From IMG/VR virus record IMGVR_UViG_2718218398_000008: a stretch of DNA of 44,826 bases; one strand, given 5' to 3'. Both the position numbers and the translations under genes were made by a program. Below, piece after piece: positions 2,753 to 23,278 of the stretch (the first letter of the stretch is position 1; the number at the start of each line of letters is the position of its first letter). Under the pieces are notes generated by a model that was not told the DNA's origin, searched no databases, and worked only from the letters and a program-made list of their open reading frames with translations. The DNA comes from a virus. Taxonomy: Duplodnaviria; Heunggongvirae; Uroviricota; Caudoviricetes.

Positions 2753-5700
2753 TCAACTGATACTGATGCCGGCTGTTGATTTCTTCATCACGACAACAAG
2801 AAGGTCGCTGATACTGGTCGTTGGCGTCCAGTTATTTGCACCATATGAAGAAACATTGAAAGTCAGGGTGACATGGCCGTGTCCGGCAGGCATATCAATG
2901 ACTGATGAAAATACCCTGCTGACATCCGTCGCGGGTTGCTGAAAGATTTCCTGTCCGTTCTTCAGCACCTGCAGCTTACAGGTTGAATACCAGTATGACT
3001 GTTGGTTGTTGCTGTTGAAGTTTTCATGCTTACCACCGCGAAACAGAACGGGGGGGACGACTATCTGACGGTCAAAAGCCTGGTCATCGTACACAGTGAC
3101 CGTTATTGTACCGCTGGCATAACTGCCATTTCTCGGAAAGGCTTTTCCCACCGTTTTGACAATATCACCTTCAATCTGGTTAGCTGACAGTTTTCCCAGA
3201 ATCCGACAGTTCTGGTTAATCGTGACATTATTGAGCGTCCCGGAGTTCGCATTCACGTTACCGCTGATATCCGCATTTCTCGCAGAAAGTCGACCATCAG
3301 GTGTCAGTGAAAACGTTGGGGGATTGCCACCGCTGGTAATGGTGGGAGCCGTCAGATATTTCAGGAACACTTCGTTCATGAATATCTGATCGCCCTGCCC
3401 AACAAACATCGGCTTTGTATTGCCATTCGCAGGATTAATCATCGCAATCCTGTCCGCCGCCAGCAGCACCTGACTCTGCATACCGTCAGGGGTATTCTCA
3501 ATACCGGCACCAATACCCGCGATATAAAGGCGTCCGTCCTGCATCTGCTGCAGCTTCACAGCCCACATGCTGTTCAGGTTATTATTTGTATCAACCTGAA
3601 CCTTCTGTATCTGCTGGATCGCTGCACTCTGGTCTTCCAGTTTCTTATTGACGGTCTGCGTGATTTCATTGCTGACATCCGTAATGGACGTCCTGATTTC
3701 AGCCAGGTCAGGCGCAAGCTGACCGTTATCAATCTGCGTCCACAACTCCTGAGCCAGATGGGTTTTCCCTATCTCTCCTTTGAAAAAATCCAGATAGCCG
3801 GATGCATCATCACTCGGCTGGCCAACAGCCTCCACAAATGCCGATTTGCCAACGGTGTTCACACTGCGAATGTAAAAATAATAATCATGGCCCGGTTTGA
3901 TATTGATACTGGCGGCTATCCAGTACAGCGCCGTACCAAGATAACGCGCGCTGGCTTCAACCTGCCTGATATCCGCAATCCGCTTTTCCGAGAACCAGAA
4001 CTCAAACTGTACCGTCGGATCATAAACGGCAAGATGCGGCGTTGCGGTTATCTGAAAATAGCCCGGCGTCAGCTCAATCCGCGATGGCGCTGCCGGTGCG
4101 GCAATCCGGAACGATACCGACGCCGGATCCCCCTGCTGCCCCCACGCATTTACCGCCCGGACTGTCAGCCTGTAGTTCCCCAGCGCCAGTTGCCTGAAGC
4201 GGTATGTGGTTTCCGTCGTCCTGGCCGTGCTGACCAGCCGCTCACTGCCGTCATCCGCTGCCACGGTCAGGCGAAGCATAAAGCTCACCCCCTTCACCAC
4301 CTTCGGTGTGTCCCATCGCGCCAGCACCTGATATTCCCCGCTGTCTGCGGTGACTTCTGCGGTCAGGTGCTGCACCGCGGGCGGCGTGACACCATTCACC
4401 GTGCCACTCTGTTCGCCGTCAAAGTGCGCCCCGTTATCCACGATGGTCTCTTTTTCCGGCACATGCTGCACGGCGGTGATGGCATACGTGCCGTCGTCGT
4501 TTTCACGGATACTCACGCAGCGGAACAGTCGCTGGCGCAGCGTCGGCAGCTTCAGCCCCCATACGCTGTATTCAGCAACACCGTCAGGAACACGGCTCAC
4601 TTTCACCTTCACGCCGTCGGTGACGGACTGAACCTCCACGCTGACCGGATTGCCACTTCCGTCAACCAGGCTTATCAGCGTGGTACCGGAGGATGGCAGC
4701 GTGATTTCACGGTCGAGCGTCAGCGTCCGGGTCTGGCTGTTCACCGCCAGCACACGACCACCGGTGCTGATACCGGCATAGTCATCATCGCAGATTTCAA
4801 TGACATCCCCCGGTACATGGCGAAGCCCTTCAGCACCCACGCTGAAGTCCACGGTCTGCGTTTCCAGCAGCTCCGTTTTAATCAGCCACAGCCCGGCGCG
4901 GTGTGCCTGCCCCCGGCTGGTACAGCCAAAGGCATCCATCTTCGTGACGTTACGGCCGTAACGGGCAATGGCCTGCGTATCCTCCACGAGCTCTGTCGCC
5001 GTCTCCCAGCCGTTATCCGGGTCAATCCAGTTCACCTCAACGGCATTATGGCGGTCCTTCAGGGCGCTGAAGCTGTAGCGGAACGGCGCGCCATCATCCG
5101 GCATCACCACATTACTGCGGTTATAGGTCCACACCTTATCTGATGGTCGGTCCTGCACGAACGTCAGCGTCTGCCCGTTCCATACCGGCATACAGCGCAT
5201 CGCCGAGCAGAAATCACTGAGCACATCCCACGCCTTGCGCTGTGTGGTCAGGTACGCATTACAGGTAATGCGCGGCTCCGTGCCGCCAAAGCCGTCCGGC
5301 ACCGACTGGTCGCAGTACTGGCCGATGACATACAGCGCCCATTTATCCACATCCGCCGCACCAAGACGTTTCCCCATGCCGTAGCGCGGATGGGTCAGCA
5401 TATCCCACAGACACCAGGCCATGTTGTTGCTGTATGCCGGTTTTAACGTTCCGTCCCAGATACCGCTGTATTGCCGCGTCTGCGGGTTATAGTTCGACGG
5501 CACCTGCAGAATGCGCCCGCGAAGATGATAATTACGGCTCACCTGCTGGCTGCCGAACTGCTCCGAGTCCACCTGCACGCCAACCAGTGCCGTGTTCGGG
5601 TAGCACTGTTTCACATCGATGATTTCGGTGTATGACGACCAGAGCGTTTTGTTCAGCAGCTGGTCTGTGGTGCTGTCCGGCGTCATCCTGCGCATCCGGA

Positions 5701-6235
5701 TATTAAACGGGCGCGGCGGCAGGTTATCCACCACCACCGAGGCCAGATACTGCGAGGTGGTTTTGCCCTTAATGGTGATGTCTTTTTCCGTCACCCAGCC
5801 ACCGTTACGCTGTATCTGAACCAGCAGGCGAACTTCCGACGGATTCCTGTCTCCCTTTGAGGTGGTTTCCACCAGTGCCTGTACACCGAAGGTAAAGCGC
5901 AGACGGTCGATGTTTGCCGACGTGATGGTCCGGGTGATCGGCGTGTCATATTTCACTTCCGTACCCAGCACCGTCTCGGAGCCGGAGGATTCAAATCCCT
6001 CCGGCGGTGACTGCTCCTGCTCACCGGCCCGGAACACCACCGTGACGCCGGATATATTGGTATTCCCCTCACTGTCCAGCACCGGCGTACTGTTCAGCAG
6101 CACGCTTTTTAATCCATCCACCGGACCTTCAACCGGCCCTTCGCTGATGGCATCGATCACACTCAGCAGCTGCGTGGACTTCAGGTTGTCCTTCGCTTCG
6201 CGCGGGGTATGCCCCTTACTGCTGCCTTTACCCAT
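2753..6235 (-). CDS. J: tail tip / host specificity protein J (1160 aa), C-terminal receptor-binding region diverged from lambda
   Basis: Length and position after I; conserved lambda J motifs through most of the protein; last ~150 aa differ from the lambda LamB-binding domain. Confidence 0.95.
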
Positions 6236-6295
6236 TCGTCATGCTCCATAAACGATAAAACCGCCCGGAGGCGGTTTCACATAAAACGTTTTTCA

Positions 6296-17292: not shown

Positions 17293-20973
<3,681 letters not shown>

Positions 20974-20999
<26 letters not shown>

Positions 21000-21519
21000 T
21001 CAGCAACCCCGGTATCAGTTCATCCAGCGCGGCTGCTTTGTTCATGGCTTTGATGATATCCCGTTTCAGGAAATCAACATGTCGGTTTTCCAGTTCCGGA
21101 AAACGCCGCTGCACCGACAGGGGGATCCCGTCGAGAATACTGGCAATTTCACCTGCGATCCGCGACAGCACGAAAGTACAGAATGCGGTTTCCACCACTT
21201 CAGCGGAGTCTCTGGCATTTTTCAGCTCCTGTGCGTCGGCCTGCGCACGCGTAAGTCGATGGCGTTCGTACTCAATAGTCCCTGGCTGGAGATCTGTCTC
21301 GCTGGCCTGTCGCAGTTCTTCAACCTCCCGGCGCAGCTTTTCGTTCTCAATTTCAGCATCCCTTTCGGCATACCATTTTATGACGTCGGCAGAGTCATAA
21401 AGCACCTCATTACCCTTCCCACCGCCTCGCAGAACGGGCATTCCCTGCTCCTGCCAGTTCTGAATAGTACGGATACTCGCGCCGAAAATGTCAGCCAGCT
21501 GCTTTTTGTTGACTTCCAT
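20974..21519 (-). CDS. nu1: terminase small subunit Nu1
   Basis: Lambda Nu1-like MEVNKKQLADIFGASIRTIQNWQEQGMPVLRGGGKGNEV..., 181 aa. Confidence 0.95.
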
Positions 21520-21696
21520 TGTTCATTCCACGGACAAAAACAGAGAAAGGAAACGACAGAGGCCAAAAAGCCCGTTTTCAGCACCTGTCGTTTCCTTTCT
21601 TTTCAGGGAGTGTTTTAAATAAAAACATTAAGTTACGGCGAAGAAGAACGGAAACGCCTTAAACCGGAAAATTTTCATAAATAGCGAAAACCCGCG

Positions 21697-21708
21697 AGGT
21701 CGCCGCCC
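21697..21708. other. cos: cosN cohesive end site (12-nt lambda-type sequence AGGTCGCCGCCC, i.e. GGGCGGCGACCT on the other strand)
   Basis: Exact 12-mer ~180 bp upstream of nu1 start; flanking sequence resembles lambda cos region. Confidence 0.8.
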
Positions 21709-21856
21709 CGTAACCTGTTGGATCGACGGAAAGGACCCGAAAACGAGAATAATTATCACTTACAGCAAGAATCGAATCTGATCTATTATGGTGCTTGCTA
21801 TTATGTGCCGGCACAAGTGCGTCGTTTACCGTCATTTCACACAGAGGCATCATCAA

Positions 21857-22108
21857 ATGAAAATCAGAAATATTCTCGCTATCTCCCTTGCGACATCATC
21901 CTTCAGTTGCCTGGCATTTAAATCCTCGCCCAATGTGCTACCAGGACCAACGAATCAACTAACTGCGGTAGAAAGTAAAATTATCGGACATTTTTATGCC
22001 CCACACAGTACATTACCCGGAACAACCATCACAGGGACATGTGACGCCTCCCCCGTCCCGGGATGCACCTGTCCGTTTTGTACTATGCTGCGTAGCCAAA
22101 ACCGATAA
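21857..22108 (+). CDS. small secreted Cys-rich protein (84 aa with signal peptide; mature part ends ...CDASPVPGCTCPFC...)
   Basis: Start chosen at MKIRNILAISLATSSFSCLA with AGAGG ribosome-binding site ~9 nt upstream; four Cys clustered near C-terminus. Confidence 0.5.
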   Translation: MKIRNILAISLATSSFSCLAFKSSPNVLPGPTNQLTAVESKIIGHFYAPHSTLPGTTITGTCDASPVPGCTCPFCTMLRSQNR

Positions 22109-22169
22109 CATCCGCATTTACCTGGTATTCCATGATGAGTTCACGCAGCGACTGATAGAGGAAGGAAAG

Positions 22170-22349
22170 ATGGTTAGTAAAAGCAAGGCGCATTGCCGCC
22201 GCATGCTGCAGGCATTGCAACAGACGAGAGCAGGTATTTTTGACCAGTTGGAAAACTGCCAGCATACTTTGCCCGAGTATATCGCCATCTCATCGGAAAC
22301 CAGTGCAACTCTTATTCATCGGGTTCCACCAGAGAAAAAGAAGAAATGA
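22170..22349 (+). CDS. hypothetical small basic protein (59 aa)
   Basis: Strong GAGGAAGG ribosome-binding site immediately upstream of ATG; followed by a hairpin; no family recognised. Confidence 0.35.
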   Translation: MVSKSKAHCRRMLQALQQTRAGIFDQLENCQHTLPEYIAISSETSATLIHRVPPEKKKK

Positions 22350-22362
22350 ACAGTGAGGCGTT

Positions 22363-22387
22363 GTGTGGCATACAACGCCTTCTTCCA
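22363..22387. terminator. stem-loop (9-bp perfect inverted repeat AGGCGTTGT/ACAACGCCT) between convergent genes
   Basis: Inverted repeat read directly; weak T-tract, so terminator function uncertain. Confidence 0.4.
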
Positions 22388-22471
22388 TCATTCCTCGTCA
22401 GCCATGACAAAAATATAACCGCTGGCTCTTTCATTTTTCTCCTGCTTCCAGCCCCTCTCTACCTGGAAGCA

Positions 22472-22798
22472 TCAAGGACGTGACGGCGTAAAGATAAATT
22501 GTCTCTTCACTCCCTGACAGGGGCGATTCTTTTCAAATCGCCATTTCGCCATGGCCTTCACCACTTCATCACGAAACAAATTATGAGGCTCTGAGCGGAG
22601 AAAAACGATCCGTGTCACAGTCCCATCAGCACCAATATCGAACTTAACCTCAACCAGCCCCTTGATATAATTTGCTGCAGCATATTCCGGATATCGTGGA
22701 TACACCGTCACTAATTGCCGGGGCTCATCAGCTTTTTGCTGCGAGCATCCCACTGCCAGGACAGATAACAGAAAAAGTAGTAAAAGGCGTCTTTTCAT
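22472..22798 (-). CDS. lipoprotein with TonB C-terminal-like domain (start at MKRRLLLLFLLSVLAVGC lipobox)
   Basis: Signal peptide plus lipobox LAVGC; C-terminal region resembles the TonB_C fold. Confidence 0.65.
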   Translation of the reverse strand: MKRRLLLLFLLSVLAVGCSQQKADEPRQLVTVYPRYPEYAAANYIKGLVEVKFDIGADGTVTRIVFLRSEPHNLFRDEVVKAMAKWRFEKNRPCQGVKRQFIFTPSRP

Positions 22799-23278
22799 TT
22801 TTATTCCTACGGGTCTTATTCTGACAATATATCCTGTGTTCCAGACTGCCACATCACCACATCCTGTGCCATTATCTGACTCACATTACATACATCGCAT
22901 CGGGATACAGTAGTAGCACTTTCTGTAATACAGCTTCCTGTTTCTTCCACCATCGCACCGGGATAAACCCGCGAATCATTAACGCGGTAAAAACCCGGTG
23001 TGCATCGTTTTTAATTATTCCCGCACACTCACGCAGAAGGAATTCCCCGTCGGGCTACGGTCATGGTTAATGCGGGAATACGGCGACGATACAGCGCAGC
23101 TAAAAGGGTAATGGACGGATAGACCGGTTTATTTCATTCCACAGGATTCTGAGTGTCCCCAACTTCCTCCAATAGTCTGAGCCCACCTGTGTAGTTTTAA
23201 TTTTCATCAATCCATTTAACTATCGTTTAATTGTTGTCACATAGGATTCTGCCGTTTTTAACAATGCAGGATAATAAG

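Follow-up and report, generated by a model that had tools for sequence, protein, structure and literature searches.

What do lambdoid prophages carry between their cohesive end and their lysis genes, and what might such cargo do for the cell that harbours it? The question is raised by a viral stretch of 44,826 nucleotides (IMG/VR record IMGVR_UViG_2718218398_000008, Caudoviricetes; 'the window' below means the whole of this stretch), in which an original prediction, made from the sequence alone, had singled out positions 21709-23278 as a lysogenic-conversion cluster that includes a lipoprotein with a domain resembling the C-terminus of TonB (TonB_C). Our data are best explained by a cluster of cargo (moron) genes at the right end of a lambdoid prophage, with three real genes: bor/iss, the gene for the TonB_C lipoprotein, and a small gene that we refer to as orf83. 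Here we ask what kind of protein the TonB_C lipoprotein is and whether it could, as had been proposed, interfere with TonB-dependent uptake.

The TonB_C lipoprotein and its family

The gene lies at 22472-22798 on the minus strand, opposite to bor as had been proposed, and codes for a protein of 108 amino acids (aa; WP_000830178) identical to CPT_21_73 of phage 21. The resemblance to TonB was borne out by profile search, with matches in Pfam, NCBIfam and the PDB: the protein scored 49.2 bits against Pfam TonB_C (PF03544; cutoff 24.6, E 7.3e-13) and 47.4 bits against TIGR01352 (cutoff 27.1), and TonB chains of the PDB were matched at E 1.4e-14, with lipoprotein residues 24-103 corresponding to residues 151-230 of E. 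coli TonB. Thirty-two of these 80 residues (40%) are identical between the two proteins. The residues kept include the YP motif (Y163 and P164 of TonB), G174, G186, P198, F180, F202, W213 and F230, while Y215 is replaced by F; the counterparts of the YP motif and of the aromatic core in the phage protein are Y36, P37, F53, F75, W86, F88 and F103. In addition, the beta3 segment (VKRQFIFT) is present at its full length.

The N-terminus of the protein reads MKRRLLLLFLLSVLAVGC followed by SQQ, with a lipobox (L-A-V-G-C) whose cysteine is Cys18 and a serine at position +2. The mature protein is essentially a TonB C-terminal domain alone, which begins eight residues (SQQKADEP) past the cysteine predicted to be lipidated; the N-terminal transmembrane anchor and the proline-rich spacer are missing, and a signal peptide with a lipobox stands in their place. 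Since both of these parts are lacking, the protein cannot couple to ExbB-ExbD or transduce energy, and the NCBIfam equivalog profiles for TonB were far from being matched (best score 69 bits, cutoff 315). Judged by its sequence, the TonB_C lipoprotein is not a TonB energy transducer. Under the Lol sorting rule the residue at +2 governs the destination of a lipoprotein, so that the serine found here predicts sorting to the outer membrane, and the eight-residue tether would hold the domain at the periplasmic face of that membrane, where TonB boxes emerge.

This architecture is shared by a wider family. Homologues at 35-72% identity from Klebsiella, Raoultella, Erwinia and metagenomes have retained the lipobox, in the forms MGC, LGC or SAC with S, T or A behind it, and a library-wide search returned about 20 short single-domain relatives, most of them with a lipobox. 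These short lipoproteins have conserved surface motifs of their own, namely YAxAN in helix 1, SEPxHLFD and AMAKWRFE. A literature search on this TonB_C lipoprotein found no study of it; on morons, the genome note of phage 21 states no more than that they are different from those of lambda.

Could the gene simply be a non-functional relic, a captured fragment of the host tonB? Such a reading is invited by the database names 'TonB fragment' and 'partial tonB-like membrane protein', found in ev017, Perceval and CP-933N, and by the fact that only the last ~80 residues of TonB are covered. To examine selection, we aligned the cassette (21765-22990) across 74 IMG/VR loci and classed each single-nucleotide polymorphism (SNP) as synonymous or nonsynonymous. 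The TonB_C gene showed nine synonymous and four nonsynonymous SNPs, and none of the 74 loci had a stop or a frameshift in it, whereas neighbouring spurious open reading frames (ORFs) carry them. Against an allele at 72% identity, the ratio of nonsynonymous to synonymous substitution rates (dN/dS) was 0.12, with length conserved. The relic reading, which we consider very improbable, must also contend with the acquisition of a lipoprotein signal peptide and its conservation in the distant relatives described above; purifying selection and the conserved lipobox contradict a tonB pseudogene fragment. Furthermore, at only 40% identity to E. coli TonB, any capture would not have been recent.

Possible interference with TonB-dependent uptake

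In the solved complexes of FhuA with TonB, the TonB box pairs with beta3 in TonB's C-terminal domain (PMC11658791). We tentatively favour, as a reading that is plausible and still short of probable, the view that the TonB_C lipoprotein is an outer-membrane-tethered decoy that interferes with TonB-dependent uptake. Through beta-strand pairing on its beta3, the lipoprotein would fill the TonB boxes that ligand-loaded outer-membrane transporters or incoming colicins present; alternatively, its partner might be the tip of the host TonB, which is scarce. In either case, import of TonB-dependent phages such as T1 and phi80, of colicins B, D, Ia and M, and of microcins would be damped, at the price of some loss of siderophore and B12 uptake. 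We prefer this reading because of the TonB_C family matches, the intact beta3 and aromatic core, the purifying selection, the mobility of the cassette (described below) and the precedent of Llp and Cor. Fragments of the TonB C-terminus exported to the periplasm were reportedly found, by Howard et al. (J Bacteriol 2001), to inhibit transport through FhuA and FecA, infection by phi80 and killing by colicin M. A stronger form of the proposal, in which a lipid-anchored mimic of the TonB tip caps TonB boxes or traps TonB and thereby makes the cell broadly tolerant of all TonB-dependent phages, colicins and microcins together, strikes us as doubtful.

Several observations weigh against a decoy. Three transporter-contact residues of TonB are replaced in the phage protein (R158 by T, Q160 by Y and R166 by Y) and are variable within the short-lipoprotein family too, so that binding to TonB boxes may be altered or lost; Q160 is the classical position of TonB-box suppressors (PMC11658791). 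Close relatives occur as single genes outside prophages, in ordinary chromosomal surroundings (araBA is the neighbour in Erwinia, a GGDEF/EAL gene in Raoultella), which suggests a housekeeping role in the envelope rather than one in defence. A general blocker of TonB would starve the lysogen of iron. The native receptor of phage 21 is LamB, which is not a TonB-dependent transporter. A scan of the minus strand for promoters returned no sigma-70 site, a GATAAT hexamer upstream of the gene included, and a search of the window for Fur boxes, allowing up to three mismatches, gave no match. Finally, an AlphaFold2 model of the lipoprotein, computed without an alignment, was uninformative (predicted local distance difference test score, pLDDT, 51). 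We also considered self-exclusion and rejected it, since phage 21 carries an identical cassette and uses LamB; any exclusion would hit other phages and colicins.

The replaced contact residues and the family's own surface motifs lend weight to a different reading, in which the TonB_C fold is a generic binding module of the periplasm whose partner is something else, for instance peptidoglycan or another envelope protein, and TonB-dependent import is unaffected. Such a module might alter properties of the envelope, including tethering of the outer membrane to the cell wall, serum survival or vesiculation, and the gene would then be ordinary fitness or virulence cargo like Bor/Iss. The single chromosomal homologues of Raoultella and Erwinia and the ~20 short single-domain relatives fit this, as does the position of the gene beside bor/iss in strains of extraintestinal pathogenic E. 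coli (ExPEC) such as 536 and UM146, both of which are carriers of the cassette. Our data nevertheless name no alternative partner, the beta3 and aromatic core needed for pairing with a TonB box are intact, and the very short tether sets the domain exactly where TonB boxes emerge. We regard a generic module as a doubtful explanation, both in its claim that import is untouched and in the effects on the envelope that it entails.

When would the protein be made? It had been claimed that all genes of the segment lie outside the orientation of the late operon, and their expression in the lysogen had been argued from this. For the TonB_C gene neither the claim nor the argument survives: the gene is co-oriented with the late operon, on the same minus strand as Q (25152-25841), S, R, Rz, Nu1 (20974-21519) and terminase A (19074-20999), and only bor, orf83 and an ORF of 59 codons (orf59, see below) run antisense to late transcription. 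The same arrangement, with a late-strand homologue placed between the lysis genes and that for the small terminase subunit, was seen in phage 21, in JLK-2012 and in the Klebsiella phage ST13-OXA48phi12.4. The phage 21 cassette is 100% identical to that of the window, and CPT_21_73 is annotated there as a 'TonB C-terminal domain protein'; JLK-2012 has the 72% allele, which is also present in Stx1a phages, and the homologue of ST13-OXA48phi12.4 is 41% identical. In lambda, the antiterminated pR' transcript passes through cos into the head genes. Since the TonB_C gene lies on the late strand, its position and orientation show, by analogy with lambda, that late lytic transcription, at the least, would include it, whatever else may drive it.

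That its own promoter drives the gene in the lysogen is possible but unproven, and the candidate elements are weak. A -10-like GATAAT hexamer lies at 22871-22876 on the minus strand, ~75 nt upstream of the start codon, and lacks a good -35 element; together with the block ATTGTYAGAATAAGAC it is kept between the 100% and 72% alleles, where the surrounding upstream DNA has diverged. A candidate for a bidirectional terminator is the GC-rich hairpin (GGCGTTGT-N7-ACAACGCC) at 22357-22379, where the convergent units of TonB_C and orf83 face each other. On the minus strand it has a folding energy of -20 kcal/mol (z-score -2.1) and is followed by the U-rich UCUUUUUCUCU; on the plus strand the values are -17.9 kcal/mol and -2.6. 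A strict terminator scan did not pick it up.

These features bear on a third reading, that of a purely lytic accessory produced from the Q-antiterminated transcript, which would shut down TonB or its transporters during the latent period and would have no part in lysogenic conversion. Its effect might be to protect the producing cell from superinfection or from killing by colicins, or to aid lysis and release. In each of the phage contexts seen, the gene is on the late strand and comes directly downstream of the lysis cassette, the scan found no convincing promoter of its own, and Llp of T5 is likewise made during lytic infection. In PHROGs, moreover, the family is classed with lysis and named 'Rz-like spanin' (phrog_1267, E 5e-43). 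However, a complete spanin pair is already present in the window: Rz at 23604-24065 on the minus strand, with Rz1, a proline-rich lipoprotein, embedded at 23663-23845. The TonB_C protein is a globular domain and not a short proline-rich outer-membrane spanin, and its gene, ~800 bp away beyond bor, is neither nested in nor adjoining a gene for an inner-membrane spanin. For these reasons we reject a spanin identity, and the phrog_1267 label looks positional. The G+C content of the cassette (0.44-0.48) is below that of the flanking late genes (0.51-0.57), the conserved GATAAT and the downstream hairpin fit an autonomous unit of cargo, and the chromosomal homologues must have promoters of their own. 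Taken with these points, an exclusively lytic accessory appears unlikely, as do the effects on superinfection, colicin killing or lysis that would follow from it.

The cassette, its ends and its other genes

The original prediction had placed the cluster, Bor included, between cos and the lysis cassette; cosN and Bor were confirmed at the two ends of the segment. The cohesive-end sequence cosN (AGGTCGCCGCCC) occupies 21697-21708 and is lambda's left end (GGGCGGCGACCT) in reverse complement; the minus strand of the window at 21620-21708 aligns with lambda bases 1-89 at 97.8%. The right end of the virion DNA begins at 21709. From there to 21764 runs a cosQ-proximal right-end segment, recognised by sequence similarity and common to lambda and other lambdoid phages (with window 21620-22480 as the query, its positions 1-145 were 92-94% identical to lambda, HK629 and others), and the phage 21 record has cosQ annotated at the equivalent place. 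At the other end, the segment stops one base 5' of the start codon of bor/iss (23279-23572, plus strand), a gene for a serum-resistance lipoprotein that matches Pfam Lambda_Bor (PF06291) at E 1.1e-30 with 106 bits (cutoff 25), has the lipobox LITGC and is named 'increased serum survival lipoprotein Iss' by the Prokaryotic Genome Annotation Pipeline (PGAP).

Upstream of bor lies a conserved non-coding segment of 112 bp (22990-23101), which is common to lambda (46865-46974) and to many Shiga toxin (Stx) phages, and which was found at 83-96% identity in hundreds of Stx and lambdoid phage records. It showed no significant RNA fold (z-score -0.77), and Rfam at a permissive threshold returned only chance microRNA matches, none of them for this segment. 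The coding sequence VT2phi_272, which is annotated over the conserved segment and labelled 'Rz-like spanin' in RefSeq, was set aside, as it does not encode a TonB_C protein and looks spurious.

Two small plus-strand genes with good ribosome-binding sites had also been predicted. Both ORFs and their Shine-Dalgarno sequences exist, and one of the two, orf83, withstood analysis as a gene. It runs from 21857 to 22108 on the plus strand, behind a purine-rich Shine-Dalgarno sequence, and codes for 83 aa from an MKIRN start; the predicted product consists of the signal peptide MKIRNILAISLATSSFSCLA, cleaved before FKS, and a mature peptide of 63 residues. Its C-terminal end reads GTCDASPVPGCxCPFCTMLRS, in which C70, C72 and C75 (CxCxxC) are invariant. 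Full-length homologues of 83 aa, at 55-77% identity, occur in Citrobacter, in Klebsiella quasipneumoniae and in Salmonella enterica subsp. salamae and indica. Comparison with these orthologues gave a dN/dS of 0.10-0.17, at saturated synonymous sites, and nucleotide conservation begins at the ribosome-binding site and ATG and stops at the stop codon. Across the 74 loci we counted four synonymous and five nonsynonymous SNPs and no disruptions. The gene is unannotated both in the phage 21 record (OL657228) and in the PGAP record of strain 4/1-1. Searches of Pfam, NCBIfam, PHROG and PADLOC with orf83, and a profile search of the PDB with its family, gave no match, and a structure prediction with 17 homologues reached a pLDDT of 49. 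As judged from its orthologues and the selection on it, orf83 is a real, mostly unannotated gene for a predicted secreted cysteine-rich protein that matches no known family.

The orthologues of orf83 are found in varied surroundings. On the K. quasipneumoniae contigs (5800-6260), the gene adjoins a lambda-like cos remnant, a gene for a Fur-family regulator, a CobW/COG0523 gene and insertion sequence (IS) fragments; the Fur-family and CobW neighbours may hint at a connection with metals for a CxCxxC protein. In Salmonella enterica subsp. salamae it lies between genes for a PPC-domain protein and a Bor homologue, near genes for an omptin, a SPATE autotransporter and a NEL effector, and in Citrobacter koseri it abuts icd, the attachment gene of phage 21 and e14.

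The second plus-strand ORF, orf59 (22170-22349, 59 aa), is preceded by a strong purine-rich Shine-Dalgarno sequence, GGAAGGAAAG; its variation, however, is not that of a gene. It showed two synonymous and seven nonsynonymous SNPs, a one-nucleotide insertion at codon 6 in two of the loci (L089 and L090) and a one-nucleotide deletion in another (L083). Among 5.8 billion proteins its relatives were near-identical or frameshifted copies only, with no divergent ones, and it is not conserved downstream of the Klebsiella, Salmonella and Citrobacter orthologues of orf83. Frameshifted in natural variants and without divergent homologues, orf59 is therefore unsupported as a gene.

Three annotated minus-strand ORFs fared no better. 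The 60-aa ORF at 22083-22265 (WP_000881610 in PGAP, CPT_21_75 of phage 21) has no synonymous and seven nonsynonymous SNPs, and a nonsense change, E46*, in 22 of the 74 loci. The 40-aa ORF at 22312-22434 (CPT_21_74), for which NCBIfam and PHROG returned no family match, has two synonymous and three nonsynonymous SNPs, with E37* in two loci. The corresponding counts for the 45-aa ORF at 22816-22953 (CPT_21_72) are one and three, with R18* in two loci, and in the 72% allele its frame, as read off the alignment from the shared ATG, closes at ~21 codons. All three are probably annotation artefacts and not genes.

The 1.2-kb cassette moves among lambdoid phages as a single unit. It was found at 97% identity or more across 74 viral contigs that differ in their Nu1/terminase types and that have or lack bor, and 1231 of 5426 complete E. 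coli genomes (~23%) have the part from 21765 to 22470, nearly always at 99% identity or more. Plasmid-borne iss regions were searched and the cassette was not found in them, so that a linkage to plasmid iss was rejected. Since the 72% TonB_C allele has no orf83 alongside, and orf83 orthologues occur without TonB_C on a Klebsiella replicon, in Salmonella and in C. koseri, the two genes are independent cargo. One contig of 418 bp, which is filed under Modestobacter excelsi, matches the E. coli cassette at 100% identity and is almost certainly a contamination of that actinobacterial assembly.

Elsewhere in the window, the early region carries cargo of its own: a 1421-aa inverse autotransporter of the intimin/invasin family (31310-35575, minus strand), an IS66 element (28549-30965) and an alpha/beta-hydrolase (27690-28478). 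The C-terminus of J, its host-specificity end (2753-3500, minus strand), is at least 99.7% identical to those of a set of temperate coliphages (PhiR47_2, 1H12 and the Lambda_ev series).

Implications and comparison with known systems

If the TonB_C lipoprotein does damp import, it would represent a new route by which a prophage protects its host, in which the energy transducer is mimicked rather than a single receptor masked. Such a generic exclusion, aimed at energy coupling and distinct from the receptor-specific action of Llp and Cor, would be present in about a quarter of sequenced E. coli, and would bear on competition through colicins and microcins in the gut, on host range in phage therapy and on the uptake of siderophore-conjugated antibiotics in ExPEC and commensal E. 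coli. The presence of the identical gene in a classical laboratory phage, phage 21, makes the proposal unusually easy to test. Whatever its function, the annotation of the region changes: one conserved gene had been missed, three of the ORFs on record are probably spurious, and 'Rz-like spanin' is a misleading PHROG label. In orf83 there is, in addition, a second cargo family that travels with TonB_C in the cassette and is entirely uncharacterised.

The closest known counterpart in fold is the C-terminal domain of TonB itself (residues 150-239 of the E. coli protein; PDB 1U07, 2GRX and 2GSK), with which the phage protein shares the YP motif, the glycines, the aromatic core and beta3. The two differ in their anchoring, as TonB is held in the inner membrane and the phage protein is predicted to be lipid-anchored to the outer membrane. 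The neighbouring bor of the window is a true member of the lambda Bor/Iss family and, as in lambda, lies between Rz and cos and antisense to late transcription; Bor/Iss itself is unrelated to the TonB_C lipoprotein. PADLOC returned no match for any of the three proteins tested.

In their mode of action, the systems most readily compared are Llp of T5 and Cor of phi80 and N15, which are small lipoproteins of the inner leaflet of the outer membrane that inactivate FhuA from the periplasmic side. Like these, and like Cor of HK022, the TonB_C protein is a small phage-encoded lipoprotein, for which placement in the inner leaflet is predicted. Its fold and sequence are nevertheless unrelated to theirs, and scans of Pfam, NCBIfam and PHROG returned TonB-related and spanin-labelled families only, with no homology to Llp or Cor. 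Furthermore, Llp and Cor are specific for FhuA, the receptor of their own phage, and act allosterically on its plug and loops, whereas a TonB_C decoy would be directed at TonB or at the generic TonB box; phage 21, as a carrier of the cassette, uses LamB, unlike the phages of Llp and Cor, which use FhuA. The dominant-negative TonB fragments made in the laboratory are the same domain, placed in the periplasm without its energy-coupling part. Those fragments are soluble, over-expressed and engineered from E. coli TonB, whereas the phage lipoprotein is natural, diverged, predicted to be lipid-anchored and under purifying selection.

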